Shown piece by piece: positions 2,547 to 58,246 of a stretch of 64,000 nucleotides of DNA. Positions within the stretch are counted from its first letter, which is position 1. Each line of letters opens with the position of its first letter. The position numbers and the translations under genes are program-made. This DNA is from a virus, in the IMG/VR virus record IMGVR_UViG_3300048924_000586, positions 5,776 to 69,775 of that record; one strand, 5' to 3'. The notes under the pieces were generated by a model. It saw nothing but the letters and a program-made list of their open reading frames with translations, searched no databases and was not told where the DNA came from.

Positions 2547-2597
2547 GTATCCGCAGTCAACCAACCTGCGGGGCTTCTTCACCACAAGAGGAGAGAC

Positions 2598-2906
2598 ATG
2601 ACTAAAATCACCAGCGATCAGCTGGCGAAAATGCACGACCGTCGCCTGAGAGGCGAAAGCTGTGCCGATATCGCCAGATCCTTCGGTCTCAACGAGATGA
2701 CCGTCTACCAGCGTCTTCGTCGCGAGTTCGGCCTCGACGTCTATAAGTTTCCTCCGCCTGTTGCTGCTAACGACAACGTGCCAGGCCGAGTTCGCAAGAT
2801 GACGGCGCACAACGGCGGTTGCTCTACGCTGAGCGGCAAGATGCCGGTGACGCTTGTTCGCATCCCGACCATTGACGGTCCGGCACCAGCGCAGGTGGCA
2901 GCATGA
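2598..2906 (+). CDS. HTH DNA-binding protein in the Cro position
   Basis: GESCADIARSFGLNEMTVYQRL HTH; strong RBS; contains AANDN, ends VAA. Confidence 0.75.
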   Translation: MTKITSDQLAKMHDRRLRGESCADIARSFGLNEMTVYQRLRREFGLDVYKFPPPVAANDNVPGRVRKMTAHNGGCSTLSGKMPVTLVRIPTIDGPAPAQVAA

Positions 2907-3190
2907 GTGGCGCCTGCGATTGCGATGAATTCCACCTCGGCGACTGGGTCGAGTGCAAGCTGAATACCGATCTTTTCGGTATCGTCGTCGGCGACGCTGA
3001 TTTCGGCCGCTACGTGAACGTTCAGTTGGCCGGCTCACTCGGAACGATGCCCTTCCATGCCGTTACCCTCCGCCACATCGAGCCAAAGACCCCACCGGCG
3101 GCGGAAGACGACGACACCAACGTCGTCCACGTGGACTTCACTAAGCCACGTTCCCTGGATGCCACCACCACCACAGAAGGAGCTGCTTGA
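2903..3190 (+). CDS. Hypothetical phage protein
   Basis: ATGA-coupled to the upstream gene; ends GAA. Confidence 0.7.
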   Translation: MSGACDCDEFHLGDWVECKLNTDLFGIVVGDADFGRYVNVQLAGSLGTMPFHAVTLRHIEPKTPPAAEDDDTNVVHVDFTKPRSLDATTTTEGAA

Positions 3191-4344
3191 TGGGGAAGTT
3201 TGAAAAAGGTCAGTACGTGAGAGTGCTGCACACCGATTATGCTGAGGTTCTCGCCGTCGGCGACACTTTCAAGGTCGGCGAGGCCTATGGTCACGGCGCT
3301 GAGCCCGAGGGCGAGAACAAAGATCTGTTTTTCCTCAACCACGAACTCGAGCAGTGGGTACCGAAAGTCGGCGAGCGGGTGACGGTCAGTGCATCTGACG
3401 TGCTGGCTCACTGGAATGCGTATTGGGCGGAGACCGCCGGCGTTCGTTTGAACAAAGACGACCTCGTCTATGTGACGCAGGTCACGCCAAACTACAGTGC
3501 CGGTAAGGCTGGAATCAAGATTGCGGTGAAGGCTGGGGGAAAGGGTCCCATCTGGACGGTCGATCGGTTCAGCCCGGCTCTCGCCACCCTTACCATCGAA
3601 GCCGGCAAATTCTATAAGACGCGCGACGGCCGGAAGGTCGGGCCGGTGACGCACAACGGCTACGGTGTTTATGGGGCGCCCGGCTTCGGCGGCGCCAAAT
3701 GGTATGCAACTGGTCGCAGCTATTCGGATGAAAAGACGCTTCCCTCTGATCTCGTCGCCGAATGGGTCGACGAGCCGAAGGCCGGCAACGACAATGTCGG
3801 TATCGGGAGCCTGATCGGCAAGACAGTCACCGTCAAGATCGATAAGTCGAAGTTCAACGTCGGCGACCGTGTGAACAAAACGGACTGGCAGAGTTACAGC
3901 CCCAAAGGCTACGTCGTGACAAAGGTTGCGTCGGACGGGCTTTGGCTCGATCCCGGCAATGGAATGGCGCCGGTTCGCTACAAACTGCCAGACGACGAAT
4001 TCTGGCTGGTTCCGGCGAAGCCCGCCACCAAGCCCGCCATCGTCTGCCTCATCGAGAACGGCCAGCCCAAGCCATCCGATCGCCCGCACATCCATGCCGA
4101 CGAAGCCAAGGCCGGCAAGGAAGCCGCGCGTCTCGCGGGCGTCTATAAGGGCAAGGAGTTTGGCGTCTTCGTGCTGACCTCCAGCACGTCGCAGCCCGCG
4201 CCGGTCTACAAGCACGAATGGCAGCGCCAGGCCGCCGCCGGTAACAAGATCAGTGCGATCAAGGAACTGCGGGCCGCCAATGACCTGACGCTCAAGGGCG
4301 CCAAGGATGCCGTCGAGCACTGGCTCGACTTCATCGCCGCCTAA
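3190..4344 (+). CDS. Mosaic early protein with a C-terminal ribosomal L7/L12-CTD-like domain
   Basis: GNKISAIKELRAANDLTLKGAKDAVE resembles the L7/L12 KIxxIKxxR..LKxAK motif; ends IAA. Confidence 0.65.
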   Translation: MGKFEKGQYVRVLHTDYAEVLAVGDTFKVGEAYGHGAEPEGENKDLFFLNHELEQWVPKVGERVTVSASDVLAHWNAYWAETAGVRLNKDDLVYVTQVTPNYSAGKAGIKIAVKAGGKGPIWTVDRFSPALATLTIEAGKFYKTRDGRKVGPVTHNGYGVYGAPGFGGAKWYATGRSYSDEKTLPSDLVAEWVDEPKAGNDNVGIGSLIGKTVTVKIDKSKFNVGDRVNKTDWQSYSPKGYVVTKVASDGLWLDPGNGMAPVRYKLPDDEFWLVPAKPATKPAIVCLIENGQPKPSDRPHIHADEAKAGKEAARLAGVYKGKEFGVFVLTSSTSQPAPVYKHEWQRQAAAGNKISAIKELRAANDLTLKGAKDAVEHWLDFIAA

Positions 4345-4409
4345 ACCAACCCACCACCATCACCACAACAAGGCCGTGCGGCTCACCACCGCACGGCGAG
4401 AGGAGACCT

Positions 4410-4613
4410 ATGTCCAGACATCGCTCGACGACCAATCCCTACGCCACCAGTTTCACCCGCACGGGCAAGCTCAACATGACCAACCGCAAGCCGTACCGCA
4501 CCGCGGCTCAGCAAGCAGATGCCCGCGCCAACGCCGTCAAGGTGAACGGCACTTTCGTGTCGAACGCACCGGTCAGCTACCACCGCTCGCCGAAGAAGCA
4601 GGTGGCAGCATGA
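4410..4613 (+). CDS. Small basic hypothetical protein
   Basis: GAGAGGAG RBS after a hairpin leader; ends VAA. Confidence 0.7.
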   Translation: MSRHRSTTNPYATSFTRTGKLNMTNRKPYRTAAQQADARANAVKVNGTFVSNAPVSYHRSPKKQVAA

Positions 4614-4852
4614 GCAACGTTTTCAACAAGCTCGCCGCGCGCTAACACGCCAACGACACCAAGCTCGGCCTGCCTTCCACCGACCGCGCCCACTACGACC
4701 GCCGCAAGCACCTGATGTCGGTTTTGGCCGGTGGCAAAGGATGGCGCATCCTGGCAAAGGAGCCGGCTCGCCGGGCAGACGGCACTACGCGGGGTGAGCG
4801 CAAGCGTGCTCGTGCAGAGCAGGCCTTCGCCCATCTTCGGGTAGCAGCATGA
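4610..4852 (+). pseudogene. Small early gene interrupted by an in-frame TAA (4643-4645)
   Basis: MSNVFNKLAAR*HANDTKL...AHLRVAA; same frame, ATGA-coupled at both ends. Confidence 0.65.
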
Positions 4853-5028
4853 GCAAATCACCATGGGGCAGCCCGCCCATCACCGGCACGCCGCTCGACT
4901 ACGTGCCGATCCATGCAGAGGTCGGCAAAGGCATCGACATCCCTGACCGGCCTTCACGCATGCTCGGCTACGCCTTCGTCATAGGAGCGCTGATCATCGG
5001 CGTCCTGCTCGGCGCGGTGGCTGTCTGA
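4849..5028 (+). CDS. Small membrane protein (59 aa)
   Basis: ATGA-coupled; C-terminal hydrophobic helix; translated by hand. Confidence 0.6.
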   Translation: MSKSPWGSPPITGTPLDYVPIHAEVGKGIDIPDRPSRMLGYAFVIGALIIGVLLGAVAV

Positions 5029-5105
5029 TGTGGTCACCGTTTAGCTGGCTGCCGACGCTCTGCGTGCTCGCCGCCTTCGTCTTGATCGGCTGGATCATGA
5101 CCTAA
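5028..5105 (+). CDS. 25-aa hydrophobic peptide
   Basis: TGATG coupling; MWSPFSWLPTLCVLAAFVLIGWIMT. Confidence 0.45.
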   Translation: MWSPFSWLPTLCVLAAFVLIGWIMT

Positions 5106-5161
5106 CCCACCTGCGGCTGGCCACCACCAGCCGCAACCATCCCCACCACAGAGGAGACTAC

Positions 5162-5974
5162 ATGGCTATTTCATGGGATAAGCTTGAAGACACGTCCGAT
5201 ACCGATCCGCCGATCGTAACGCTCTATGGCGGCGCGAAGCTCGGCAAGACCACCCTCGCATCTGAGTTTCCGGCACCCTACTACTGCCGCACCGGTGAAG
5301 GCGAGAGACAGTCGGCCGGCGCACCGATGAAGTCGTTCGGTGTGTCCGAGACCTACCAGGACGTCATCGACCAGGCCGATTACCTCCTGCAGGCGGAGCA
5401 TGACCGCAGGACCTATGTACTCGACGCGCTCGACGGTCTGGAAATCATGATCCATGCCGAGGCGTGTGCACGCAACAACTGGCCGGATATCGAGGCACCC
5501 GGCTTCGGCAAGGGTTACGCTGCTGCGCAGGCCATCTGGCACGAGTTCATCAAGAAGATGCTCGAACTCAAGAAGGCCGGCTTCTACGTCATCTTGATTT
5601 CGCACGTGAAGGCGAAAACCGTGCCGGGTGTCACAACCGACAGCTACCCGCGGTACATGCTCAATCTGCGCGATGACGCCGGCAGTGCGATTTGCGATGC
5701 GTCCGACCTTATCGGTTTTCTGCATCAGCCGGTGTCGATCAAGAAGGAAGATCTGGGATTCAAGAAAACCGCTAATCGCGGGCAGGGCGGAGGCGACGTT
5801 TCCATTGCTGTGCAGGAGCGGCCGGGCTTCATCGCCGGCAACCGCTATCAGATCCCGAACCCGACCTTGTCATTCAAGATGGGGAAGGGTTTCGCTGCGC
5901 TGAACGCATTCTTCCCACCGCAGCCGGACATCGCCACCGAGGTGGTCGAAGAAGAGCAGGAGGAGGCGGCGTGA
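5162..5974 (+). CDS. AAA_24/Sak4-like recombination ATPase
   Basis: Walker A YGGAKLGKTT, Walker B YVLDALD, ISH motif, GFGKGY. Confidence 0.85.
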   Translation: MAISWDKLEDTSDTDPPIVTLYGGAKLGKTTLASEFPAPYYCRTGEGERQSAGAPMKSFGVSETYQDVIDQADYLLQAEHDRRTYVLDALDGLEIMIHAEACARNNWPDIEAPGFGKGYAAAQAIWHEFIKKMLELKKAGFYVILISHVKAKTVPGVTTDSYPRYMLNLRDDAGSAICDASDLIGFLHQPVSIKKEDLGFKKTANRGQGGGDVSIAVQERPGFIAGNRYQIPNPTLSFKMGKGFAALNAFFPPQPDIATEVVEEEQEEAA

Positions 5975-6114
5975 TCTCCGGCGGCAATTGGTTCGCTTGG
6001 TTCCCTGTGCTCGTCAGCACCTATCGCGGCAAGCGCATCGCATGGCTCGAAACTGTGCACCGCGAACGCGTCACCAGCCCATATGGCAGTGGGCCATTCC
6101 GCTACTACGCCTGA
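5971..6114 (+). CDS. Small hypothetical protein (47 aa)
   Basis: GTGA-coupled; WFAWFPV..AWLETV motif common in phage small proteins. Confidence 0.55.
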   Translation: MISGGNWFAWFPVLVSTYRGKRIAWLETVHRERVTSPYGSGPFRYYA

Positions 6115-6135
6115 CAACCAAGAGGAGATGCAACG

Positions 6136-6351
6136 ATGGCAATATTCAAATCGGACTCGCTCGACGGGATCCTGAACACTTTCAACAAGACGATCACGCG
6201 GCTCGACGCCTTCTCGGCAAAGCGCCAGCAGGACGCCGATGCCGCCGCAGCGCTCATCCAGCAGAAGCAGGACGAGCAGAAGGCCGCTCTCGCCGACGTC
6301 ACCAAGTCGGCCGCCGTTCGCTCTAAAATCAGCGACCTGATCGCCGCCTAA
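6136..6351 (+). CDS. Small coiled-coil protein
   Basis: AGAGGAG RBS; ends IAA. Confidence 0.75.
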   Translation: MAIFKSDSLDGILNTFNKTITRLDAFSAKRQQDADAAAALIQQKQDEQKAALADVTKSAAVRSKISDLIAA

Positions 6352-6378
6352 CACCACACCACCAGAAGGAGACTATGC

Positions 6379-7017
6379 ATGGCCAAGATTGGTTTCGAAT
6401 ACGAAGTCGATTTCGACAACACCGACAAGCAGGGCGGCGGCGGACTTCTGCCGAACATGTTCGCCCGCATTTGGGCTGAATCCATCGAGCTGAAGGAGAC
6501 CAATGACCAGAAGGGTCATCAGGCCGAAATCACGTTCGAGGTGCAGGAGCCGGAAGCATTCAAGGGTAAGAAGTTCTGGGCCTATTGGACGATCGTCCAC
6601 GCGGACGGCTTCAACTTCGGCCAGTACAAATACGGCAAGCCGATGTTCGACCGCCTGGCTCGCGCCGTCGAAGTCAACGTGACAGGCGACACAGACACCG
6701 ACGAGTTGCTGTTCAAGCCTTTCGTCGTCGAGATCGAGGTGCAGGAAGGCGGGCTGAAGAACGACGGAAGCGGCACCAGCTACAAGGACAAGAACCAGAT
6801 CGCGAAGTTCTTCTTCGAGGACGACGCAGCGAAAGAGCCCGTTCCGGAGCTCGGCCTGATCGGTGACGGCTCGGCAAGACGCCCGCCTTTCGGCAGCAAG
6901 GCCAAGGCACCGGCCAATGACAACCGTGCTCCTGCTGCGAACGACAACCGCTCGGCGGCCAGCGGGAAGCCCGCTGCAGCTGCTGGCGGCGCCAAAAAGA
7001 ACCCTTGGAGCAAGTAG
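6379..7017 (+). CDS. Phage ssDNA-binding protein (DUF669-like)
   Basis: Follows the Sak4-like ATPase; beta-rich core, YKDKNQI, low-complexity tail with two ANDN copies ending KKNPWSK. Confidence 0.7.
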   Translation: MAKIGFEYEVDFDNTDKQGGGGLLPNMFARIWAESIELKETNDQKGHQAEITFEVQEPEAFKGKKFWAYWTIVHADGFNFGQYKYGKPMFDRLARAVEVNVTGDTDTDELLFKPFVVEIEVQEGGLKNDGSGTSYKDKNQIAKFFFEDDAAKEPVPELGLIGDGSARRPPFGSKAKAPANDNRAPAANDNRSAASGKPAAAAGGAKKNPWSK

Positions 7018-7072
7018 CCACCACATCGCGGGCCGACTCATCAGCGGCTCGCAACACCACAGAGGAGAGACG

Positions 7073-7906: not shown

Positions 7907-7966
7907 CCACCACCCCGCCGCACGGCGCACCACCGTGCGGCAACCACCACATCAGAGGAGATCACC

Positions 7967-9025: not shown

Positions 9026-9336
9026 TGACCTCCACCGAGCAGGGAGGCGGGCTGTGGCGGCCCGCCAACGCAGCTGAAGGCCATAACTTCGAGGACAACT
9101 GGTGCGGTCACTGCTTGGAGGAGCGCGGCGAGGATTGGGAAGACGAGTTCGGCAATCATGTCGAGGGTTTTTGCCCGATCCTCTCGTATGCGCAGTCCGC
9201 CGGTCAGCCTGAGCATTGGGTGCTCCGACACGGCATGCCTTGGTGCACCGCTTTCCGCCAGGATCCAGAGCGGCCAGCGCGATGCCTTTTCACAGAGGAG
9301 ATGCCATTTGGCTCCCATCCCCAAACCCCAATCTAG
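9025..9336 (+). CDS. Cys-rich hypothetical protein
   Basis: TAATG coupling; WCGHC and further Cys residues. Confidence 0.6.
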   Translation: MTSTEQGGGLWRPANAAEGHNFEDNWCGHCLEERGEDWEDEFGNHVEGFCPILSYAQSAGQPEHWVLRHGMPWCTAFRQDPERPARCLFTEEMPFGSHPQTPI

Positions 9337-10240
9337 CACGCTACTCTCCATCCAGACCGCGCTGGAAACCGGCCACGATGACTGGGAGTCAGTCGGCGTG
9401 CCCGCCGGCGATATCGGCGTTGAATGCGACCGGGCGATCTGGCTGGCCTTTCGCCGCGCGTCGTCGCCCGAGTTCATTGACTGGCGGAAGCGTCGCATTT
9501 TCGAGCGAGGCAATATCGAGGAAGATCGACTGCTTGATCTGCTACGCCTGGTCGGCTGCGAGGTGTGGGGAGAGCAGGATCGCGTTCGTGCCGCCGGTGG
9601 CCATTTGCGTGGGAAGATCGACGGCCGCGTGGTCGGCATCCTCGAAGCGCCGAAAACCGAGCACATCGTCGAGTGCAAATCGTCGAAACAGGAGATCTTC
9701 AACAAGGTGAAGAAGCATGGAGTGAAGGTCGGCAAGCCGGAGCACTACGCGACCTTCCAGTTCTACATGCACGGCCTCGGCATCAGCCGTGTCTACTACA
9801 TGATGTCGAACAAAAACGACGAGGATCTGCACCTCGAGCGCGTCGAATATGACGTCGAGTTCGCGATCCGTGCCGTCGCCCGCATAGAACGCATCATCAA
9901 CATGCCGGAGCCGCCCATCCGCCTCTGCAAGAAACGCGACGACTTCCGCGGCATCTTCTGCCGACAGGCTGCGGTCTGCTGGGGTGAAGAGATGCCGCGC
10001 GCACACTGCCGCTCTTGCATTCACTCCACGCCTCTGATGAACGGCAATGCGGCATGGGATTGCGCCAGATGGCAGCAGCCGTTGTCGCTTGCCGATCAGG
10101 CAGCCGGGTGTCCGGCGCATCTTTTTATCCCCTCCATGCTCGCCGGCCTTGAAATGGTGTCGGCCGATCAGGAAGCGGAGACCATCACCTACCGTCGACC
10201 AGACGGCACGACTTGGACTGACGGCGCCACCACCGCCTGA
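9308..10240 (+). CDS. Cas4-like PD-(D/E)XK exonuclease
   Basis: TTG start after AGAGGAG; G.ECDR, GKIDG, VECKS, QFYM, C-terminal Cys cluster. Confidence 0.8.
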   Translation: MAPIPKPQSSTLLSIQTALETGHDDWESVGVPAGDIGVECDRAIWLAFRRASSPEFIDWRKRRIFERGNIEEDRLLDLLRLVGCEVWGEQDRVRAAGGHLRGKIDGRVVGILEAPKTEHIVECKSSKQEIFNKVKKHGVKVGKPEHYATFQFYMHGLGISRVYYMMSNKNDEDLHLERVEYDVEFAIRAVARIERIINMPEPPIRLCKKRDDFRGIFCRQAAVCWGEEMPRAHCRSCIHSTPLMNGNAAWDCARWQQPLSLADQAAGCPAHLFIPSMLAGLEMVSADQEAETITYRRPDGTTWTDGATTA

Positions 10241-10265
10241 ATTTACCACCACAGAGGAGACTGCC

Positions 10266-10703
10266 ATGACCGCATACCGCCCAGCGAATTTCGACGCACG
10301 CCTACTTTCCTACCGTCCTTTGCTTATTCGGATGGCCACAAGATACGGCGAGCCAGCCGACCGTGAAGACCTGGTGCAAAGTGCTCTCGCGCGCGCCATG
10401 GAGAAATGGTTGGATTGCCGTGATGGCTTCGCCGCATGGCTGCGGGGCGTAATGCTCGCCGAGATCCAGATGTACCGCACCGCTCGGCGGCCGCGAAAGG
10501 GTGTAGCGGCGAACGACAATACGCCCGCTACGCAGGAGGACACCGTTGCTGCCGCGCAAGCCATTAGTCGCTGCCGTAATCCAGACATCATGATTCAGGT
10601 TGGAATGGGGGCGACCATGCAGGATATCGCCGCTTCGCGCGGCATCTCCAAGCAGGCGGTAAGCGTCAAGGTGCGTGCCGACCGAGCAAGGCTGGCCGCC
10701 TGA
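10266..10703 (+). CDS. ECF-sigma-like/HTH transcriptional regulator
   Basis: DREDLVQSAL...FAAWL (region 2-like) and MQDIAASRGISKQAVS HTH; AANDN linker; ends ARLAA. Confidence 0.75.
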   Translation: MTAYRPANFDARLLSYRPLLIRMATRYGEPADREDLVQSALARAMEKWLDCRDGFAAWLRGVMLAEIQMYRTARRPRKGVAANDNTPATQEDTVAAAQAISRCRNPDIMIQVGMGATMQDIAASRGISKQAVSVKVRADRARLAA

Positions 10704-12430
10704 TGCTTGAGCTCCGATATTATCAGCGCGATTCTCTGGACGCGCTTTACAAGTATTGGGAAGAGGGCGGTGGGAATGGTCTCATCGTCCTACCGACCGG
10801 CGCGGGTAAGGCGCTCGTCATCGCAAAACTGATCGAGGAGTTGCTCGCTGACTTCCCGTCGATGCGCATCCTCAACATCACCCATGACGCCCGACTCGTT
10901 GAACAGAATTTCAAGGAGTTCATCGGGCTCGCACCGTTTGCGCCGGCTGGCATTTACTCTGCCGGCCTTAACCGTCGAGATGCCCATGCGCAGGTTCTAT
11001 TCTGCGGCATTCAGTCGGTATGGAACAAGGTTGAGCAGCTCGGCGACATCGATCTCATCATCGTCGATGAGGCGCATGGCATCTCGCGCAACGCCAACAC
11101 CCAGTATGGCAAGTTTTTTAAATCGGTCCGCAAGCACAATCCAGATAGTCGGACATGCGGCACGACGGCGACCGACTATCGTATGGATTCAGGTCGCCTG
11201 ACGGACGCGCTCGATGAGGACGATTCCCTTGATCCGATCACCGGCGAGACGGTGAAGTTCAAGCTGTTCGACGATGTTGTCTACGAGATCGGCATTGGCG
11301 AGCTTATCGAGCAGGGGTATCTCACGCGACTGACCAGCCAGAAGACCACCTCGAAAATCGATCTGAAAGGCGTCGGCACACGCGGCGGCGATTATATCCC
11401 CGGCCAAGTGTCCGAGGCCGCCGAGCAGATCATTGAGGAGGCCATCGCCGAGGACATGGCGCTTTCAGAGGGCAGGCGGGCTGGGCTGTTCTTCAGCACC
11501 AGCAAGGAAAACGCGCAGCATATCGCTGACGCGATTAATCGATATGGCCGCAGGTGCGCCGTCCTGACCAGCGATAATGCCCACCAGACGAAGGAGATCT
11601 TCGAGAAATTCAAGTCCGGCTACTATTGGGCAATCTCGTCGGTGAGCATGATCACGACCGGCACCAACTTCCCGTGGGTGGACTTCATTTCGCTGATCCT
11701 GTCGACGAAGTCGGCCGGAAAACTGGTGCAGATCCTCGGTCGCGGCACTCGCAATTTTCCCGGCAAGACAGACTGCCTGGTCGCAGACCACGGCAAGAAC
11801 CTCGCCTATCACGGCCCGATCGACCAGATCCGGCCGCGCGAGCCTGGCAAGGGGTTGGGTGACCAGCCGAAGAAGCTGTGCCCGCAGGACAAGCCGGACA
11901 TTCAAGGCAAGTGCGGTTGTGGCGAGCTTATCGCCATCTCGATCATGGAATGCCAGTGCTGCGGCTATATCTTCCCGCCGAATGAGGAGGAGAAGATCAC
12001 GGCGAAAGCAGACCTCACGCCAGTGCTTTCAACGGAGAAGCCGTGGCACGAGGTTTCATCTCGTTCCTTCTTCCACCATCCGGGCAAGGAGGGGAAACCC
12101 GATTCCGTCAAGGTGACATACCTTGTCGGGATGAAGTCGGTGAACGAGTGGATCTGCTGCGCTCACTCCGGCTTTCCGAAGTCCAAGGCTAACCGCTGGT
12201 GGATGACCCACGGCGGGAAGACGCCATATCCGAATGACGTCATCGAGTTCCTTGAACGTCAGCATGAGTTGATGGACACTACCGAGGTTCAGCTCGATTA
12301 CGGCCGAAACCCGAAATATCCGGATATCGCGGCCCACCGCGTCGCGCCGGCGAATGATAATCACGAGCCTGCGGCGAACGATAACCGACGGCGACCGGCT
12401 TGGATGGATGAGGAGGATATTCCGTTCTGA
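10703..12430 (+). CDS. SF2 DEAH helicase (RadD/YejH-like)
   Basis: LRYYQ, PTGAGK, DEAH, TAT, QILGRGTR, Zn-finger; tail with two ANDN copies and DEEDIPF. Confidence 0.92.
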   Translation: MLELRYYQRDSLDALYKYWEEGGGNGLIVLPTGAGKALVIAKLIEELLADFPSMRILNITHDARLVEQNFKEFIGLAPFAPAGIYSAGLNRRDAHAQVLFCGIQSVWNKVEQLGDIDLIIVDEAHGISRNANTQYGKFFKSVRKHNPDSRTCGTTATDYRMDSGRLTDALDEDDSLDPITGETVKFKLFDDVVYEIGIGELIEQGYLTRLTSQKTTSKIDLKGVGTRGGDYIPGQVSEAAEQIIEEAIAEDMALSEGRRAGLFFSTSKENAQHIADAINRYGRRCAVLTSDNAHQTKEIFEKFKSGYYWAISSVSMITTGTNFPWVDFISLILSTKSAGKLVQILGRGTRNFPGKTDCLVADHGKNLAYHGPIDQIRPREPGKGLGDQPKKLCPQDKPDIQGKCGCGELIAISIMECQCCGYIFPPNEEEKITAKADLTPVLSTEKPWHEVSSRSFFHHPGKEGKPDSVKVTYLVGMKSVNEWICCAHSGFPKSKANRWWMTHGGKTPYPNDVIEFLERQHELMDTTEVQLDYGRNPKYPDIAAHRVAPANDNHEPAANDNRRRPAWMDEEDIPF

Positions 12431-12432
12431 TC

Positions 12433-12460
12433 TTGACAAATTTGTAAATATCAACATGAT
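12433..12460 (+). promoter_or_regulatory. Operator overlapping a sigma70-like promoter
   Basis: TTGACAAATTTGTAAA identical to 2501-2516; CATGAT 16 bp after TTGACA. Confidence 0.75.
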
Positions 12461-12518
12461 GCATTGCATGTAAAGCGCCTACCAAGCGCGACGACACACA
12501 CCACCAGAGGAGATATCG

Positions 12519-13510: not shown

Positions 13511-13594
13511 TGTGTCCTCCGGTTGAACGACTCTCAGGATACCACACCACCCAGCGCGCCACCAACGTGTTGGTTTCACCACAGAGGAGAGAAT

Positions 13595-15209: not shown

Positions 15210-15406
15210 TCGGTCTTGAGATTGTTGGGGCGACGGCATTGTATGTCGCTGCAGTCGTCGCGGCTGCATATGTTTCCGCTGGCATTGCCGCATTCATCAA
15301 CCGCAATGCGGGTCTCGAAGGTTTGGTGCCGGTCATCATCTCCTTCTTCGCAGTCATTTTCGTGGGCGCGGTCGCGGGCCTTGTTCTCTTGGGGACGGCG
15401 CTATGA
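15206..15406 (+). CDS. Small 2-TM membrane protein
   Basis: ATGA-coupled; two hydrophobic helices. Confidence 0.6.
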   Translation: MIGLEIVGATALYVAAVVAAAYVSAGIAAFINRNAGLEGLVPVIISFFAVIFVGAVAGLVLLGTAL

Positions 15407-15783
15407 CCAAAATCCCCGGAAAACCCGTCCTGCCCATCACGCCCACCTGCGACGAGATCGGCGCCCCCACCACATGCAGGGCTTGCGGCCGCATCGCCAT
15501 GGGTATCGGCGTCGGCTTCAAGACCAAATCGGACAAGGATCCCGGCTACCTCTGCAAGGGGTGCATCACCGCCGTCTCCGACCTGTCGAAGATGGACCGG
15601 CTCAGCTTGTTCGAATTGCGGGCCTTGGATGCTGGCGTTGAGGCAGTCGGCGAATACATCGGAGAGCACGGCGTGACCGAGCTTCTCCACTTCGACGAGC
15701 TGATGCAGCGCATGATGGTCAAGGCCGCATGGGAAGGCTGCATTCGCGGGGTGAGGGCGGCTTTGAAGGAGGCACCGTTTTGA
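15403..15783 (+). CDS. Zn-binding hypothetical protein (DUF6511-like)
   Basis: Two CxxC motifs; ends EAPF. Confidence 0.65.
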   Translation: MTKIPGKPVLPITPTCDEIGAPTTCRACGRIAMGIGVGFKTKSDKDPGYLCKGCITAVSDLSKMDRLSLFELRALDAGVEAVGEYIGEHGVTELLHFDELMQRMMVKAAWEGCIRGVRAALKEAPF

Positions 15784-16244
15784 TGGAGGCGATGATGGAT
15801 TACGACAAGCAATACATGGCCGCAGCGGAACTTACGGCTGCCAATAGCAAGGACCGCTCCACAAAGACGGGATGCGTTATTGTCTCGCCAGATCACATCA
15901 TCCGCGCCGTTGGATACAACTCTTTTCCGGCTGGCGTCCATGATCTCGATGATAGGCACGAGAGGCCGGAGAAATACTTCTGGACCGAGCACGCGGAGCG
16001 TAACGCGATCTACGACGCTGCCAAAAGGGGCGTCTCGTTGGATGGCTGTACCGCCTACATCAACTGGTATCCATGCATGGATTGCGGTCGAGCATTGGTG
16101 CAATCCGGCGTGACCGCCATCGTATGCCGCGAAGTGAACATGGACCACGAAAAATACGCGGCTGATTTTCGACGAGCAGCCACCTTATTCGCCGAGGCTG
16201 GCATCGAGGTTCGCTTCGTTGTGGGTGAGGCCGACGCCGCCTAG
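15783..16244 (+). CDS. dCMP deaminase
   Basis: SKD.STKTGCVIV, GYN, HAERNAI, PCMDC. Confidence 0.95.
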   Translation: MEAMMDYDKQYMAAAELTAANSKDRSTKTGCVIVSPDHIIRAVGYNSFPAGVHDLDDRHERPEKYFWTEHAERNAIYDAAKRGVSLDGCTAYINWYPCMDCGRALVQSGVTAIVCREVNMDHEKYAADFRRAATLFAEAGIEVRFVVGEADAA

Positions 16245-16315
16245 CCAACCACCATTCTAACCGACGACGCCACCAACGTCTCGGCGACACCACACCACAT
16301 CCAGAGGAGACTACC

Positions 16316-22364: not shown

Positions 22365-22474
22365 GAACCAACTCCGAACAAATGGCTGCGTCGGCGCCAT
22401 CAATGCCCTGCGGCATTTAACGCAAAGTTAACAGATCGCGTTTGCGCACAGTTAACCACCACAGAGGAGACGAC

Positions 22475-42382: not shown

Positions 42383-42446
42383 CGGCCTAGCAGCCTGCGC
42401 TCAGCTACCGCACCACCACCAAAACACCACATCAGAGGAGGCCGCT

Positions 42447-43907
42447 TTGGCTGACCTATCGTACTTCCATGGCGTTCAGGTGCTCGAAAGCCCTGACAGC
42501 CCGTCGCTTCTGCGCGTCACCAACTACGGCATTTCGTTCGTTAACGGCACTGCACCAGGAGCCGACGCTGCCACATTCCCGCTCAACAAGCCGACGCTGG
42601 TCACGAACCTGTCGCAGGCTGCGCTCCTCGGAACGCAGGGTACGCTCTACAATGACGTGGTCACCATCTTCGGTGAGGGTGGCTCGATTGTCATCGTAAA
42701 CCGCGTGGAGCATAGCGATACGCCTGCCACACTGCAGGCAAACCTGATCGGCGACGCGGGCCAGCGCACTGGCCTTTACTCCGCACTGCGCGCAAAGGCG
42801 CTGCTCGGCTACCAGCCGCGCGTCATTGTGACCGCCGGCAATACCGGCACGTGGATCGAGGGCGGACTCCTGTCTGTTGCAGTGTCTGGCGGTGGCAGCC
42901 TGCTGACTGAGGCGCCGACGGTAACTTTCACAGGTGGCGGCTCCGATGCCGGCAAGGTGCTGCCAACCGCGGTAGCAGTCCTCGGTACGGGCATCAACGC
43001 TGGTAAGGTCCTGTCTGTCACCGTTACCAGTGCTGGCAAGGGCATGACACAAGCTCCCGTCGTTGCCTTCACGGGCGGTGGCACTGAGGCAGGCAAGGTT
43101 CTCCCGACCGCAACCGCCAACATCGGAGACGTCGGCAACCCGTTCGTCTCGGCGCTGGCGACTATCACGGAACAGGTTAAGGCTCGTGCCTATATTGCCG
43201 GCCCGAACACGACCAATGCCGATGCGGTGCGCTTCCGCGCCACCATCAACAGCGGTCGCATCCTGCCTATTGACCCGGCCGGTATCAAGAACGTCGACGG
43301 CGTGCCCGTCATCGTGCCGATCGCGCCGGTCTTCGCAGGCATTCGTTCCCGTGTTGTCGGGTCCGCCGAGGGCGTTTCCGGTTCGGTTTCGAACAAGGAA
43401 ATTCGCACGCTGGACGGCGTGGCGCGCACGATCGCATACCCGACCGACAGCAATTACCTGAACGACAAGCAGATCGCGACGGTGATTAACGAAAACGGCC
43501 TGCGGACGTGGGGCTCCCGCCTCGCGACGTCGGATGCGCTCTGGCAGTTCGACAGTGTCCGCGCGACTGCCGACATGATCAACGAGAGCCTCGAGCAGAT
43601 CTACTTCAAGTGGGTCGACAAGAAGTTCACGAAGGCCAACCTGAAGATGATGATCGAGGACGGCAACGCCGCCCTGCGCGTCTTCAAGAAGAACGACGAC
43701 ATCCTCGGCGGCAAGGTCTGGCTGTCCGACATCAACCAGCCAACGGTCAACGCCAACGGCCAGGTCTACCTAAATGTCGAGTTCGAGCCCGTCGGCCTGA
43801 TGGAGCAGATCAAAATCACTACGCATCGCAACATCCTCTACTACCAGATCCTTCTGGATGAGGTCCGTGGCGCGATCGACAATGGCCCGCTCACGCTGGC
43901 CGCCTAA
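42447..43907 (+). CDS. Tail sheath protein
   Basis: YFHGV, FPLNKP, RTGLY.AL, SVSNK, LRTWG.R, VRATAD; TTG start after AGAGGAG. Confidence 0.95.
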   Translation: MADLSYFHGVQVLESPDSPSLLRVTNYGISFVNGTAPGADAATFPLNKPTLVTNLSQAALLGTQGTLYNDVVTIFGEGGSIVIVNRVEHSDTPATLQANLIGDAGQRTGLYSALRAKALLGYQPRVIVTAGNTGTWIEGGLLSVAVSGGGSLLTEAPTVTFTGGGSDAGKVLPTAVAVLGTGINAGKVLSVTVTSAGKGMTQAPVVAFTGGGTEAGKVLPTATANIGDVGNPFVSALATITEQVKARAYIAGPNTTNADAVRFRATINSGRILPIDPAGIKNVDGVPVIVPIAPVFAGIRSRVVGSAEGVSGSVSNKEIRTLDGVARTIAYPTDSNYLNDKQIATVINENGLRTWGSRLATSDALWQFDSVRATADMINESLEQIYFKWVDKKFTKANLKMMIEDGNAALRVFKKNDDILGGKVWLSDINQPTVNANGQVYLNVEFEPVGLMEQIKITTHRNILYYQILLDEVRGAIDNGPLTLAA

Positions 43908-44430: not shown

Positions 44431-44511
44431 GCCACCAACCATCACCAGCATAACCCGAAGGGCCGCCTCACCAGCGGCCTTTCGCTTTTCTGCACCACAG
44501 AGGAGGGTCTC

Positions 44512-52525: not shown

Positions 52526-52581
52526 GGGATTCCCTCGCGGAATCTCACGGTGTATGCTGCTAGCCAGCGGACCAAGTTTGA

Positions 52582-54254: not shown

Positions 54255-54273
54255 GATCTCACAATAGGTTTTT

Positions 54274-54288
54274 GTTCCTATTATGTTC
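54274..54288. promoter_or_regulatory. Alphaproteobacterial LexA box
   Basis: GTTC-CTATTAT-GTTC (GTTC-N7-GTTC) 20 bp upstream of imuA. Confidence 0.88.
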
Positions 54289-54557: not shown

Positions 54558-54806
54558 TTACTTTTGCTTCAGGCGATTCACCGTCTCTAGGATTTGCCTG
54601 AGTTCCTCGTCTGCGCCCATGCCGAGTGCCAAATTTTCTGCGACCTCGACAACAGCTGCTAGGGTTTCGGCCTCTGTCCAGCCGGCTTTCATCGCGTCGG
54701 CAATAAGCTCCTGCAACTGGCCTTCGATCGCCTCCTGACATTCGATGAAGCGGTCGGAAGAATTCGCGCGGGGTTTATCCGTGCCGCCTAACGAACTCAA
54801 CCGCAA
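54558..54806 (-). CDS. Small hypothetical protein (start uncertain)
   Basis: DRFIECQEAIE..AGW...E..AA; possible TTG start after GAGGGG. Confidence 0.5.
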   Translation of the reverse strand: MRLSSLGGTDKPRANSSDRFIECQEAIEGQLQELIADAMKAGWTEAETLAAVVEVAENLALGMGADEELRQILETVNRLKQK

Positions 54807-54831
54807 GCAGTTCCCCTCAGCATCACAAATC

Positions 54832-54860
54832 TTGACAAATTTGTAAATATATTGTAGTGG
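54832..54860 (+). promoter_or_regulatory. Operator/promoter of the distal early operon
   Basis: TTGACAAATTTGTAAA (54832-54847) identical to 2501 and 12433. Confidence 0.75.
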
Positions 54861-54908
54861 TAGTTCATTGGCCTCACCAGCCAAATTCACCACACAGAGG
54901 AGGCCGTC

Positions 54909-55565
54909 ATGACCAGGTTCAGACGCATTGCGTTCGCATCCGTCGCTGTCGCACTCAGCAGCGTCGCCTACTTCGCCGCCCCTACAGTTGCGGCCTATAC
55001 CGAAAAGTTCACCGCCGCGCCGGTTACAGCCGCCGCGACGGTCAAAGTCGTTACAAAAACCGGCCACGGCTCGGGTGTGCACATCGGCACAGGATTTGTT
55101 CTGACTGCTGCGCACGTCGCCCGCGACGTGAAGTCGGTGCAATTGGTGACTAAGGATGGTCAGTCACGCCAAGCCGACGTCCTGTGGATCAACAATGAAT
55201 ACGACATCGCGCTGCTGCGCACGTCGCCCGCGACGTTGCCTGCCGCTCACCTGGACTGCGGTCGTATGGATGTCGGGGCGGTCATCGAGGCAATGGGCAA
55301 TCCTCTGGTCGTCGACTTTGTCTCAGCCTACGGCAAGATCGCCGGCGACACTCGGACGCAAGGTCCTTGGAAGTCGGTCTATGTCACCGACATAACGACT
55401 GTGAAGGGCATGAGCGGTGGCCCGGTATTCTCGTCGTCTGGCGATGTCGTCGGCATCACCGTAGGCCTGCTGTCTGACGCTACCGGGCTGATCCCGATCG
55501 GCGTGCGATTTGGTTTCGTCGTTCCGTCGTCAGATGTCTGCGCGCTTTTGGGGCGGGTGTCTTGA
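54909..55565 (+). CDS. Exported trypsin-like serine protease
   Basis: Signal peptide; GSG, LTAAHV, DIALL, GMSGGP. Confidence 0.92.
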   Translation: MTRFRRIAFASVAVALSSVAYFAAPTVAAYTEKFTAAPVTAAATVKVVTKTGHGSGVHIGTGFVLTAAHVARDVKSVQLVTKDGQSRQADVLWINNEYDIALLRTSPATLPAAHLDCGRMDVGAVIEAMGNPLVVDFVSAYGKIAGDTRTQGPWKSVYVTDITTVKGMSGGPVFSSSGDVVGITVGLLSDATGLIPIGVRFGFVVPSSDVCALLGRVS

Positions 55566-55765
55566 TGCGCGAGTACAGGATAGTTCGCGACGGCTACGCC
55601 GGTTACGAGGTGCAGGTGCGCACAAAGTGGTGGCCCTTCTGGCGTCAACCGCTAACCAACACCCACTCGACGATTGAGGCCGCCGAGAGATGGGCGCGAA
55701 ATCACGCATCGAGCAAGACGGCCGGTGTTGCACGATTTCAGCCGAAGTACCTCGGCAGGCTCTAA
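55565..55765 (+). CDS. Small hypothetical protein
   Basis: Coupled start; YRIV..YEVQ..WWPFW. Confidence 0.65.
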   Translation: MREYRIVRDGYAGYEVQVRTKWWPFWRQPLTNTHSTIEAAERWARNHASSKTAGVARFQPKYLGRL

Positions 55766-55787
55766 CCACCACATAGAGGAGACTTCC

Positions 55788-56075
55788 ATGTCCGACCCAA
55801 TCGTCGTCGATATCGGCGCCGCAATGCAGACGCTCGAGGCCAATCCGGATCTCGCAGAGAAGATGGCAGGCCTTATGGGTCTAAAGGAGCGATATTACCT
55901 GTCGCCGGACAACGACGGCCACTGGTTTGTCGTCCCGATCACGAAGGCTTCCGAGTGGGGCGAGTGGAAGCGAATTCCCGCTGACGACGAGCGCGCGTGG
56001 ACGCCTCCGGATTTCGCAAAGCAGGTGGGCGGATCGCCTTGCCTCGTCACCTTCACCAACCCGGAGATTTCATGA
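55788..56075 (+). CDS. Hypothetical protein
   Basis: CCACCACATAGAGGAG leader. Confidence 0.7.
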   Translation: MSDPIVVDIGAAMQTLEANPDLAEKMAGLMGLKERYYLSPDNDGHWFVVPITKASEWGEWKRIPADDERAWTPPDFAKQVGGSPCLVTFTNPEIS

Positions 56076-57328
56076 AAACCAGCCCAGAAGAACTGCAGCG
56101 CAGAGCGGACGCCTATCGCGAGCACGGAACGCTCGTAAAGGCGGCCGCCGCGCTCGGCATCAAGAAGTCGGCACTGCACGACAGCATCAAGCGAGCCGCC
56201 GAGGTTGGTCTGCTCGGCACAAAGCCGGTGTTGCCAGGCTTCGCCATAAAGTCTATTGCGAGCAAGGACGGCGACGCATGGATCAAGCAGACGAAAGCTC
56301 CGGGTGAGGTGTTCGAGCTCCCCGTAGGCCAGGTTGTCAAAGGCGTGTCGGCTCTCGTTGATGGGCAGGGCAGGGAAGTCGCCAAGTGGATTAAGACGGC
56401 CGCAGACGCAGAAAACCAGCTTGCCGCAATGCGCGCCGCAGTCGAGGCCTTCAAGGAAGACATTCCTCGGGCTGAGCCGGTGGCGGCTCCGATCTATTTC
56501 GAGGACGATCTTCTCTGCCAATACACCATCACCGATGCCCACCTCGGCGCTCTTGCTTGGAATGAGGAGACTGGATCGGGAGATTACGACCTGTCGATCG
56601 GAGAGAAGCTCGTGATGGACTGGTTCGCGTCGGCTATCTCAGTAGCGCCGGCTGCTCGTCGTGCCGTGTTCGCGCAGCTCGGCGATTTCCTCCACTACGA
56701 TTCGTTCAAGAGCGTCACGCCAGAGCACGGTCACCTTCTGGACGGCGACACCCGCTATCCGAAAATGGTCCGTGCCGCGATCCGGATAGTCCGACGCGTC
56801 ATCGGTCTGCTGCTACTCAAGCACGAGCGCGTCGACATCATTATGGCCGATGCGAACCACGACCCCTCAAGTGAGGTCTGGCTGCGCGAGATGCTGGCTG
56901 CGTTCTATGAGGACGAGCCTCGCATCACCGTCGACACGAGCCCCGGCACCTACTCCATGATCGAGCATGGCGCCGTCACGCTCTTCTATCATCACGGTCA
57001 TCGCCGTGGCGTCGGCAACGTCGACTCGGTCTTCGTCGGGAAATTCCGAGAGGCATACGGCAGGACACGGTTCAGCTATGCGCACGTCGGCCATAAGCAC
57101 TCTGACGAACTCAAGACCACCAACCTCATGAAGGTCGAGCAGCACGAGACGCTCGCCGCGCCAGATGCCTACGCGGCGAATGGTGGCTGGCTTTCGGGTC
57201 GATCGGCAAAAGTCATCTTCTACCACAAGCAGGCTGGCGAGGTCGGTCGTAGCGTCATGACGCCGGAAATGGTTGCGGGCAAGTATGCAGCTGCCAACGA
57301 CAACGTGCCTGCGAAGGCGGCGGCGTGA
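56072..57328 (+). CDS. HTH plus calcineurin-like metallophosphoesterase
   Basis: TDAH.G, GDFLH, ANHD, HHGH, GHKH; ends AANDNVPAKAAA. Confidence 0.88.
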   Translation: MKTSPEELQRRADAYREHGTLVKAAAALGIKKSALHDSIKRAAEVGLLGTKPVLPGFAIKSIASKDGDAWIKQTKAPGEVFELPVGQVVKGVSALVDGQGREVAKWIKTAADAENQLAAMRAAVEAFKEDIPRAEPVAAPIYFEDDLLCQYTITDAHLGALAWNEETGSGDYDLSIGEKLVMDWFASAISVAPAARRAVFAQLGDFLHYDSFKSVTPEHGHLLDGDTRYPKMVRAAIRIVRRVIGLLLLKHERVDIIMADANHDPSSEVWLREMLAAFYEDEPRITVDTSPGTYSMIEHGAVTLFYHHGHRRGVGNVDSVFVGKFREAYGRTRFSYAHVGHKHSDELKTTNLMKVEQHETLAAPDAYAANGGWLSGRSAKVIFYHKQAGEVGRSVMTPEMVAGKYAAANDNVPAKAAA

Positions 57329-57885
57329 GGAAGGTCAGCGTTTGTTCGGTCGACGGGTGTGAAAATCCCGTCGGCAGGACCGGTGGCCTAGGGTGTTGCC
57401 GAAAGCACTATCGGCGCATGAGGGCGCACGGTGATCCTCTCGCTGGTAGTACCGAAAAAGGAGCCGCCAAGACGTTCGTAGAGGAAGCGGCGCTGTCCGA
57501 GGCTGGTGAATGCGTCATCTTCCCGTTCTTCCGCAACAAGGAGGGCTACGGTCGATTGAACTTGGACAGCGGCCGATATGTTGGGGCGCATTTCTACGCG
57601 TGCGAGATCCGGAATGGATCGCGTCCATCGAGCGAGCACGAAGCAAGGCACTCGTGCGGCAATGGGCATGAGGGATGCGTGAACGGCAGCCACCTTTCTT
57701 GGGGCACTCGCAAAGAGAACGTAGCGGATGCGATCAAACACGGCACAGCGATGTTCTGGGGCGTCCCGGTGTCGTCCTACGGCGCGTTTCGATCATCTAT
57801 CGGTGGACGCGTGGATACCGCCGATGTCAAGGAATGGCTCGCCGCCAATGACAACGTGCCGACGGAGCAGAGGAGGGTGGCCTAA
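57325..57885 (+). CDS. HNH/His-Cys-box endonuclease
   Basis: CSVDGC..C.KHY.R, GYG, AH, RHSCGN...CVN..HL.WGT..EN. Confidence 0.85.
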   Translation: MRKVSVCSVDGCENPVGRTGGLGCCRKHYRRMRAHGDPLAGSTEKGAAKTFVEEAALSEAGECVIFPFFRNKEGYGRLNLDSGRYVGAHFYACEIRNGSRPSSEHEARHSCGNGHEGCVNGSHLSWGTRKENVADAIKHGTAMFWGVPVSSYGAFRSSIGGRVDTADVKEWLAANDNVPTEQRRVA

Positions 57886-58130
57886 AGCGGATTGTCGTTG
57901 GCCGTCAGGTGAAGGAGGATTGCCGCCCTTACTTCGACGTCCGCGGCTCCGCACTGTTTTGAAATCTCTTCAATGGCCAGATCGACATTGGCGACAATTG
58001 GGTCTTTGAGGACCTGGTGCAGCATTGGTCCGAAGGGTCCGAATGAGACTAGCTCTGAATTGCCGTGCAGCCCGGTCTGAACCAGGATCTCCGCGTACGG
58101 CCCTTTGAAACTCGACTTTACAATTTTCAT
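57882..58130 (-). CDS. Small antisense protein ending TANDNPL
   Basis: Fills the gap, convergent with the HNH gene; start uncertain (58130 or 58139). Confidence 0.5.
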   Translation of the reverse strand: MKIVKSSFKGPYAEILVQTGLHGNSELVSFGPFGPMLHQVLKDPIVANVDLAIEEISKQCGAADVEVRAAILLHLTANDNPL

Positions 58131-58246
58131 TGCCGCCACTCAGTAAACCGAAAAGCGATTTTATATCGCTTTTCGGCTGCGGGCAATACCTTGACGACGC
58201 CGCCGGCCACCAACCGGCAGCAACCACCACCACAGAGGAGACTGAA

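Follow-up and report, generated by a model that had tools for sequence, protein, structure and literature searches.

A 64,000-bp stretch of viral DNA, comprising bases 5776–69775 of the 69,775-bp IMG/VR provirus record IMGVR_UViG_3300048924_000586 (hereafter the window), carries a short leader that recurs on the + strand ahead of mostly nonstructural genes and combines a C/A-rich tract rich in CACCAC, a GAGGAG Shine–Dalgarno block and, at many sites, a GC-rich hairpin bearing ACCA in its loop. Judged by sequence resemblance, the window belongs to a provirus of Rhizobiaceae, with an early module like that of Sinorhizobium phage 16-3. We read the leader, with a probability of roughly one half, as a cis-acting, lineage-specific, start-associated cassette of 16-3-like temperate phages of Rhizobiaceae, made up of a C/A-rich enhancer, an extended Shine–Dalgarno sequence and an insulating or stabilizing hairpin.

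Sequence and Folding of the Element in the Window

A previous sequence-only reading had listed 11 hairpins with different stems and similar loops, together with six sites holding the CACCAC and ribosome-site part alone. The sequence proved to be as described at each of these positions, and the proposed hairpin was the minimum-free-energy fold of the local sequence in 11 of 11 cases. Folding energies ranged from −5.0 to −19.9 kcal/mol (z from −1.9 to −5.4), and of 200 shuffles between 0 and 13 reached an equally stable fold. The weakest hairpins were the three proximal to promoters, at 2551 (−10.3), 12475 (−5.6, 4 bp) and 54868 (−5.0, 5 bp). The loop of the 7028 hairpin, CTCATCA, holds no ACCA and is the loop that had been recorded for it.

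The recurrence of the element greatly exceeds chance. When the 13-mer CACCACAGAGGAG was searched with at most one mismatch, seven matches were found in the window, all of them exact and on the + strand, against an expectation of 0.08, and none of 100 shuffles reached seven; over the whole record the count was seven forward and zero reverse, with zero on either strand for the backwards control. Hairpins having a stem of at least 6 bp, a loop of exactly 7 nt and ACCA within that loop numbered six on the + strand and none on the − strand, whereas the count in 100 Markov shuffles averaged 1.13 and never exceeded 4. At 18 starts on the + strand a CA-rich tract lies directly 5′ of (A/G)GAGGAG or AGAAGGAG, 4–7 nt ahead of the start codon (Table 1). 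The automatic leader criterion had returned 20 window genes, of which 50889 and 56072 were dropped, their CA words lying in coding sequence with no GAGGAG. A hairpin is absent from 7 of the 18 leaders, the small stem at 10223 being counted as a hairpin. These data support the description of a dispersed, sense-strand element with variable stems, an ACCA-containing loop, CACCAC flanks and a GAGGAG ribosome site.

The claim that three of the hairpins lie downstream of operator-bearing promoters also holds, because exact copies of the 16-mer TTGACAAATTTGTAAA on the + strand (2501, 12433 and 54832) precede the hairpins at 2551, 12475 and 54868 by 35–50 nt; these hairpins begin within about 2–15 nt of the predicted starts of early transcripts. 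As to the 16-mer itself, it comprises a −35 hexamer overlapping the palindrome ACAAATTTGT, and its three identical copies head three early units (2501–2516, 12433–12448 and 54832–54847, all +). A fourth, variant copy lies at 1870–1885, beside the CI-like repressor gene (1894–2490), and the same sequence heads operons in relatives.

No match was obtained in the window, the ACCA-loop hairpin included, with any of 4227 Rfam families at the gathering score, and a tRNA/tmRNA scan likewise gave none. An RNase P minihelix, in which a stem is followed by ACCA, fits the hairpin at 5112 only, the others being followed by different sequence, and this candidate was rejected.

Gene Class, Position and Consensus

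Using our own rough gene call of the window, we compared + strand genes preceded by a gap of more than 10 nt and found the leader at 12 of 16 in the early region (2.5–23.4 kb) versus 2 of 15 in the late region (26–52.5 kb). The two late-block leaders precede the tail sheath and a tail protein; the other 16 of the 18 are found outside the virion module. Genes with a start overlapping the preceding stop have no leader, with the exception of 3190, for which the motif lies inside the upstream reading frame. The leader therefore marks non-coupled early genes. Where genes of relatives lie on the minus strand, the leader does so too; that is, its orientation follows the gene.

A broader, automatically collected set of 125 distinct leaders, drawn from 14 relatives in addition to the window and containing some false positives, allowed the anatomy to be described more closely. 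A GC-rich hairpin occurs between −80 and −9 in 74 of these 125 leaders, with ACCA in the loop in 47 of the 74 and a loop of 7 nt in 36 of the 47. ACCA occupies two loop registers, CNC-ACCA and CN-ACCA-A. The 3′ end of the 47 ACCA-loop hairpins lies 12–62 nt (median 25) from the start codon, and 8 of the 11 window hairpins are intercistronic. GAGGAG is followed by A (98/116) and then C (84/116), nearly all positions from −10 to −2 are C or A, and the Shine–Dalgarno block is usually preceded by CACA or CACAA. Within the CA tracts, the words ACCA (3.6-fold), CCAC (2.6-fold) and CACC (2.5-fold) are over-represented, and CCCC (0.07-fold) and AAAA (0.15-fold) are avoided, as are triplets of C or A, a bias that is partly inflated because each leader had been picked for containing one of these words. 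We also considered whether the CA tract pairs with the 3′ tail of 16S rRNA and, on aligning it to the presumed tail sequence, rejected the idea.

Conservation of Structure

Two sites chosen by synteny allowed the stems to be compared across relatives. Upstream of the sliding clamp gene, an ACCA-loop hairpin is found in 12 of 12 distinct close relatives with at least five stem sequences, and RNAalifold on 11 of the relatives at this site gave six pairs, four of them with compensatory changes. Downstream of the 3190-family gene, a hairpin abutting the Shine–Dalgarno sequence is present in 10 of 10 relatives as well as in the window and in phage 16-3; this site was judged from the sequences directly, as its heptaloop and tetraloop hairpins are not alignable by MAFFT/RNAalifold. 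In close relatives the loop-closing pair at this second site is G-C or C-G and the loops are CTCACCA, CGACCAA, CCACCAA and CTACCAA. Three more distant relatives (L132, L137 and L143) have unrelated stems there, with the loops CGGA, GCGA and GCTG, and at the clamp site the loop of L137 is TTCG. Since the hairpin is kept with tetraloops, it is selected in its own right, the ACCA loop being a replaceable habit of the lineage.

Stem covariation, which the sequence-only reading had proposed together with a conserved loop, is thus supported at synteny-chosen sites, both by four of the six RNAalifold pairs and by direct comparison at the two sites. The covariance model R1, covering 25 positions of the bare hairpin, had little power, and its pair statistics are circular because the training hairpins were selected by us; its non-training hits in the window had E-values from 0.0014 to 3.8, and the 54868 hairpin was not reported. 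At the nucleotide level the leaders form islands of conservation: in one relative (L128) the counterpart of window positions 5102–5169 is 88.6% identical over 70 nt, and the Sak4 proteins encoded downstream are 36% identical.

Distribution among Phages and Hosts

The leader is the phage's own and not the host's. In the 5.1-Mb genome of Rhizobium daejeonense, 10 of 12 matches to CACCACN{0,6}GAGGAG fall within one stretch of ~60 kb that holds a prophage, and 11 of 16 lie inside a prophage in the 6.0-Mb genome of R. esperanzae. Each of five relatives at least 92% complete has 9–13 matches, with zero for the control, clustered in the same two nonstructural regions and oriented with the genes.

Among 80 clamp-linked viral loci, the strict motif was found in 14 and in none of the other 66. 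It is present in 13 of 14 loci with at least 56% clamp identity, the exception being L137, and additionally in L142 at 48%. Under a looser criterion, counting genes with a CA leader, each close locus has 6–12 such genes, L142 has 7 of 22, L143 4 of 31 and L137 2 of 27, and the ten most distant loci examined have 0 or 1 gene each. A 16-mer scan of all viral contigs returned 76 stretches, of which 36 hold at least three leaders. A collection scan with the 14-mer CACCACAGAGGAGA was uninformative; among the matches listed, almost all were single.

Phage 16-3 itself has both leaders and ACCA-loop hairpins, for example GCCGTGCGC-CTACCAA-GCGCACGGC before p075 and CCGCGCG-CCACCAA-CGCGCGG before p096. 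The database record of this phage has no annotation of leaders or hairpins, the 2023 paper on its close relative AP-16-3 contains the terms hairpin, stem-loop, Shine-Dalgarno, ribosome binding and intergenic zero times each, and a literature search that did not extend to the papers first reporting the 16-3 genome turned up no account of the element. In a separate observation, a (TGG)6 run on the + strand, which is (CCA)6 on the minus strand, lies at record bases 2489–2508, 5′ of the window; because CA leaders in that part sit on the minus strand, the run probably represents an extreme leader for a gene of that strand.

Proposed Function and Alternative Explanations

In the cis-acting cassette that we favor, the upstream stop codon is followed by a single-stranded tract of ACC/CAC units, then, at about half of the sites, by a GC-rich hairpin whose 6–7-nt loop again presents ACCA, and finally by a second CACCAC(A) tract leading into the extended Shine–Dalgarno sequence GAGGAG(AC), 4–7 nt from the start codon. 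We infer that the C/A tract would behave as do the C/A-rich (ACA) enhancers that raise translation of enterobacterial mRNAs: being unstructured, it would give the 30S subunit a place to land or stand by, probably by way of protein S1, and would keep a very strong Shine–Dalgarno sequence accessible, so that each non-coupled early gene would be started efficiently on its own. The hairpin would shield the ribosome site from upstream sequence and may protect RNA ends, both as a stem-loop near the 5′ end of each of the three early transcripts and as an intercistronic barrier. In Salmonella, CA-rich/ACA elements upstream of the Shine–Dalgarno sequence enhance translation almost independently of position, with S1 as the proposed receptor, according to a report (PMC3879156) whose reference list includes Komarova et al. 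Four observations favor the cassette: the likeness of the tract to ACA enhancers, the higher predicted accessibility of the ribosome site, the persistence of the hairpin beyond its ACCA loop, and the lack of a co-occurring binder. Predicted accessibility over −16 to +3 is 0.52 for the 18 motif leaders versus 0.41 for 37 other uncoupled starts (Mann–Whitney p = 0.006) and 0.39 for 30 coupled ones (p = 0.004).

Several points weigh against this reading. The word bias of the CA tract goes beyond what a lack of structure alone would require. In an alignment with the presumed 16S rRNA 3′ end, the conserved AC that follows GAGGAG is left unpaired, and CA tracts occur upstream of the hairpins too, far from the ribosome site. 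Host genes barely use the leader (2 of 12 and 5 of 16 matches lie outside the prophages), which is odd if it is simply the best ribosome site for host ribosomes. The gain in accessibility is modest, with the leaders of 42447, 44512 and 54909 scoring at most 0.35. Lastly, stem G-U and A-C pairs number five versus four in 33 hairpins, giving no independent proof that the RNA strand folds.

The word bias, the conserved AC, the upstream CA tracts and the absence from host genes fit specific recognition better than a mere lack of structure, and they bring in a tentative alternative in which the ACCA motifs of loops and CACCAC runs are multivalent sites of a dedicated trans regulator. This regulator, whether a G/U-rich small RNA or an RNA-binding protein encoded by phage or host, would act on translation or stability to switch the early regulon as a unit, in the manner of T4 RegA, CsrA and GcvB. 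Several ACCA copies per leader on both sides of the hairpin, the restriction of the motif to the phage and one gene class, and the ACCA loops of 47 of 74 leader hairpins (36 of the 47 with 7-nt loops), against 9 of 244 (+) and 2 of 277 (−) among all 7-nt-loop hairpins of the window, speak for it, as does the targeting of such CA-rich enhancers by GcvB (PMC3879156). Possibly, then, the ACCA loops and CACCAC runs form the operator set of a new post-transcriptional regulon of 16-3-like rhizobiophages, alongside Ala-Ala C-termini that may shorten the life of early proteins, a suggestion that we would not put above a minority view; the ACCA-specific factor could be host- or phage-encoded, protein or RNA, and could bind several copies per leader. 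Against a trans factor stands the search for a binder. Neither protein named earlier as a candidate survives comparison with relatives: the small basic protein encoded at 4410 (12 K/R vs. 1 D/E) is present in 3 of 12 motif-bearing loci and in 0 of the 5 relatives at least 92% complete, and the 60241 protein in 1 of these 5. The early proteins common to all relatives belong to replication and recombination, namely Sak4, DUF669, the clamp, the PD-(D/E)XK nuclease and the helicase, and when three conserved early proteins were searched against PDB sequences no hit had an E-value under 0.2. Pfam scans of 20 proteins and PHROGs scans of 30 revealed no RNA-binding domain, and no CsrA family match came from the 20 proteins of the Pfam set. 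Nor was a G/U-rich anti-motif RNA found on a separate transcript in the 69.8-kb record, where the hits were complements of leaders. The retention of the hairpin with tetraloops in L132, L137 and L143, the two registers of ACCA and the seven leaders without a hairpin also argue against such a factor; the tetraloops (CGGA, GCGA, GCTG and TTCG) and the two registers weaken, in particular, the CsrA-style regulon of new specificity that had been proposed. In CsrA/RsmA regulons a CsrA dimer binds GGA, which lies in hairpin loops and overlaps the Shine–Dalgarno sequence; the loops here hold ACCA.

The cis-acting cassette must also be set against readings that place the function at the DNA or transcription level. 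That the leaders act mainly as DNA, either as gene-boundary linkers for recombinational shuffling of early genes or as a spreading repeat cassette, with the RNA features secondary, seems improbable, even though homology blocks often start at leaders (4335, 5143–5162, 6343–6352, 7938–7945 and 13577), isolated leader-only matches of 70–85 nt reach 84–89% identity, the hairpin type GGCGGGTCG-TCACCAG-CGGCCCGCC precedes different genes in different relatives, and the phages encode a Sak4 annealing protein. The leaders are strictly oriented with the genes and tied to a correctly spaced Shine–Dalgarno sequence and start codon, and their stems show compensatory substitutions with pairing kept, which points to selection on RNA structure and not on DNA identity. 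Mosaicism at gene boundaries is, moreover, general in phages and needs no special sequence; a linker role may be a side effect. The sequence-only reading had suggested nut/boxB-like antitermination sites; here the CACCAC runs would take the part of boxA, and an antitermination factor would be loaded repeatedly onto RNA polymerase along the early operons. The three hairpins lying ~2–15 nt from the predicted starts of operator-controlled early transcripts would suit this, as would the small basic protein encoded early at 4410 and the C-rich single strands flanking the hairpin, which resemble rutA-boxB-rutB at lambda tR1. We nevertheless consider it very unlikely because of the number and position of the sites and the lack of a conserved partner or of visible terminators. 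Instead of one site per early operon without a tie to starts, there are 11 hairpins, 8 of them intercistronic, all 12–62 nt from a start codon, and leaders number 18 per genome against the two nut sites of lambda. No small basic antiterminator is co-conserved, the 4410 and 60241 proteins being missing in most hairpin-bearing relatives, and no antiterminator family was hit among the proteins scanned with Pfam/PHROGs. Intrinsic terminators would appear as a GC-rich hairpin with a U tract; 10 of the 11 hairpins are instead followed by C/A-rich sequence, the sole one with a U-rich tail being 44456–44484, followed by CTTTTCTG, and no + strand hairpin in 1–20 kb was listed as terminator-like. With a single U-tailed hairpin, there are therefore few visible terminators for the operons to override, and the phage encodes a sigma factor of its own in addition to having three distinct early promoters. 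Of the sequence-only interpretation, the dispersed structured element with covarying stems stands, both proposed binders find no support and the nut/boxB role is very unlikely. Just as unlikely is that the tracts are Rho-loading (rut) sites enforcing polarity and making downstream transcription dependent on translation: they are C-rich, nearly G-free, unpaired, intercistronic and present on both sides of the hairpin, but they are just 10–35 nt long, whereas Rho needs roughly 60–80 nt, and they lie immediately ahead of strong ribosome sites that would cover them.

A further pairing was seen in some leaders (2574–2591, 44485–44505 and that upstream of the clamp gene in L128), in which a U-rich run 5′ of CACCAC can pair with the Shine–Dalgarno sequence (CTTCTT/AAGAGG and CTTTTCTG/CAGAGGAG), leaving CACCAC as the loop of a small hairpin that would sequester the ribosome site. 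The U run at 44456–44505 is also the terminator-like tail of the preceding hairpin, between the tail tube and chaperone-like genes.

Leader Sites and Genomic Setting

Table 1. Leaders identified in the window, with the gene that each precedes (window coordinates).
Gene	Positions	Strand	Arrangement, 5′ to 3′	Remarks
2598	2550–2597	+	hairpin 2550–2572, loop TCAACCAAC, then CTTCTT-CACCAC-AAGAGGAG	hairpin begins ~15 nt past the predicted early-transcript start, promoter at 2501
3190	3150–3189	+	(CCA)4 CAGAAGGAG	leader-only; within the end of gene 2903–3190
4410	4345–4409	+	stop codon, 28-nt CA tract, hairpin 4373–4397 (9 bp, CTCACCA), 1 nt on GAGAGGAG	
5162 (Sak4-like)	5102–5161	+	hairpin 5112–5135 (9 bp, loop CCACCA), then ACCATCCCCACCACAGAGGAG	
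6136	6115–6135	+	CAACCAAGAGGAG	weak leader-only site
6379 (DUF669-like)	6352–6378	+	CACCACACCACCAGAAGGAG	leader-only
7073	7018–7072	+	CCACCACATC, hairpin 7028–7052 (loop CTCATCA), then AACACCACAGAGGAG	
7967 (sliding clamp)	7907–7966	+	CCACCACCCC, hairpin 7917–7941 (9 bp, CGCACCA), then AACCACCACATCAGAGGAG	orthologous covariation-test site
10266 (sigma-like)	10223–10265	+	hairpin GGCG-CCACCAC-CGCC, then ATTTACCACCACAGAGGAG	hairpin in the last codons of gene 9308–10240; kept in relatives as GGCG-CCACCAA-CGCC
12519 (exonuclease)	12467–12518	+	hairpin 12475–12489 (4 bp, CTACCAA), then ACACACACCACCAGAGGAG	5′ end of second early transcript
13595 (methyltransferase)	13536–13594	+	ACCACACCAC, hairpin 13551–13573 (8 bp, 2 G-U, CCACCAA), then TTTCACCACAGAGGAG	
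16316 (methyltransferase)	16245–16315	+	CCAACCACCATTCTAA, bulged hairpin 16261–16284 (CCACCAA), then CGACACCACACCACATCCAGAGGAG	
22475	22446–22474	+	AACCACCACAGAGGAG	leader-only
42447 (tail sheath)	42383–42446	+	CCGCACCACCACCAAAACACCACATCAGAGGAGG	leader-only
44512	44431–44511	+	CA tract, hairpin 44456–44484 (11 bp, CTCACCA), CTTTTCTG, then CACCACAGAGGAGG	
54909	54866–54908	+	hairpin 54868–54884 (5 bp, CTCACCA), then ATTCACCACACAGAGGAGG	5′ end of third early transcript
55788	55766–55787	+	CCACCACATAGAGGAG	leader-only
58247 (pyrophosphatase)	58198–58246	+	hairpin 58202–58218 (5 bp, CCACCAA), then AGCAACCACCACCACAGAGGAG	

The window has a G+C content of about 59% and almost all of its genes lie on the + strand. 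A CI-like repressor (phrog_4) is encoded at 1894–2490 on the minus strand, opposite an early block (2.5–20.5 kb) that specifies a Sak4-like annealing protein, a DUF669-like protein, a sliding clamp, a PD-(D/E)XK nuclease, a helicase, an exonuclease and a primase as well as a sigma-70-family protein, two methyltransferases and a dCMP deaminase. A virion block follows, from the small and large terminase through the tail sheath at 42447–43907, then a second nonstructural block at 54.9–61.5 kb and an integrase at 62639–64000. The nearest named relatives of the clamp protein are in Sinorhizobium phage AP-16-3 (61.5%), two Rhizobium RHph phages and Rhizobium phage 16-3 (55.6%), and the closest host genomes are those of R. 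daejeonense (76%), R. esperanzae (69%) and Falsochrobactrum ovis (48%). Searched by megablast, 20 kb of the window had no match in the phage collection.

The genome is mosaic, its early module (2.5–20.5 kb) matching the siphovirus 16-3 and relatives and its virion module (26–52.5 kb) encoding a contractile-tail sheath (phrog_23, E = 3e-61) and having ordinary Shine–Dalgarno contexts. The sigma-70-family protein is encoded at 10266–10703 (Sigma70_r2, E = 1.1e-7), and phage 16-3 has two adjacent sigma genes at the corresponding place. A nucleotide-metabolism set is formed by the dCMP deaminase, a MazG-like pyrophosphatase and a dNMP kinase (15783–16244, 58247–58870 and 60773–61462).

C-Terminal Ends of Early Proteins

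We also observed that 17 of the 86 predicted window proteins end in Ala-Ala, versus 1.1 expected from the alanine frequency, with all four Ala codons in use. Examples are the genes ending at 2906, 3190, 4344, 4613, 5974, 6351, 7906, 10703, 14164, 14982, 16244, 17947, 33120, 43907, 57328, 59582 and 60244. The same ending is found in 30–45% of the early-region proteins of close relatives and in 0–2 proteins per locus in ten distant loci; in annotated phage 16-3 it occurs in 9 of 28 early proteins. In several families that are unrelated to one another it is kept in orthologs of 30–45% identity whose preceding residues differ and, by family, in 6 of 6 members for 3190, 8 of 8 for 2598, 13 of 16 for Sak4 and 8 of 11 for the sigma-like protein. 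ClpXP recognizes C-terminal Ala-Ala, and the ending may be an ssrA-like C-terminal degradation signal that makes early proteins short-lived. Other conserved tips are D-[IV]-P-F in the helicase (10703–12430), PWSK/PWGSK in the DUF669-like protein (6379–7017) and APF in a DUF6511 protein (15403–15783); the helicase tip resembles the acidic DDDIPF tail of Escherichia coli SSB.

Comparison with Known Systems

Lambda nut sites consist of boxA plus a boxB hairpin bound by N, and the present element shares with them small conserved-loop hairpins, conserved unpaired flanks and, for some copies, a position just past early promoters; it differs in how many copies there are, in lying next to start codons and in the type of loop, and no N-like protein is conserved with it. 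Stabilizing stem-loops are known in the ompA 5′ hairpin, REP elements and the puf operon hairpins. Like these, the present hairpins are GC-rich, lack a U tract and stand at transcript 5′ ends and between cistrons, whereas the known stem-loops have neither a conserved loop nor a coupled ribosome-site leader.

The C/A-rich (ACA) enhancers of gltI, dppA and yifK, which are targets of the small RNA GcvB, share with the present leader an unpaired C/A-rich tract of flexible position at or just upstream of the ribosome binding site (PMC3879156). As in those enhancers, ACA normally lies just 5′ of the Shine–Dalgarno sequence in the present leader (CACA|GAGGAG). The leader departs from them in that its unit is ACC/CAC and not ACA, it forms a phage-wide cassette with hairpins, and its enhancer role is putative; a search of the 69.8-kb record found no G/U-rich partner RNA for it. 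Were the leader a module of translation and stability, it would offer a natural, portable and strong ribosome-site design for Rhizobiaceae. As the same features are found in phage 16-3 of Sinorhizobium meliloti, which is cultivable and genetically tractable, a cis enhancer and a trans regulon can be told apart by direct test.

The nearest formal analog, to be regarded as an analog and not as a fellow member, is the start-associated sequence (SAS), with its extended form (ESAS), of Cluster K mycobacteriophages (PMC3203893). Both are short, asymmetric, conserved sequences with a Shine–Dalgarno core placed a few nucleotides before many starts in one orientation (3–8 nt for SAS; all 18 leaders here lie on the gene strand). 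Both serve mostly nonstructural genes and are virtually absent from the host genome, which corresponds here to 16 of the 18 leaders and to the 10 of 12 and 11 of 16 host matches that lie in prophages. Both have an upstream inverted repeat at about half of the sites, and for both a role in translation initiation is suspected. The sequences differ, SAS being GGGATAGGAGCCC and the present leader CACCAC(A)GAGGAGAC; ESAS has conserved 17-bp repeat arms with a variable spacer, whereas variable stems and a conserved loop are found here; and the hosts are Actinobacteria in the one case and Rhizobiaceae in the other (PMC3203893). If the present leader is indeed a translation and stability module, 16-3-like phages would constitute, after the Cluster K mycobacteriophages, a second independent temperate phage lineage that standardizes the starts of its nonstructural genes, which would point to a general strategy rather than a curiosity.

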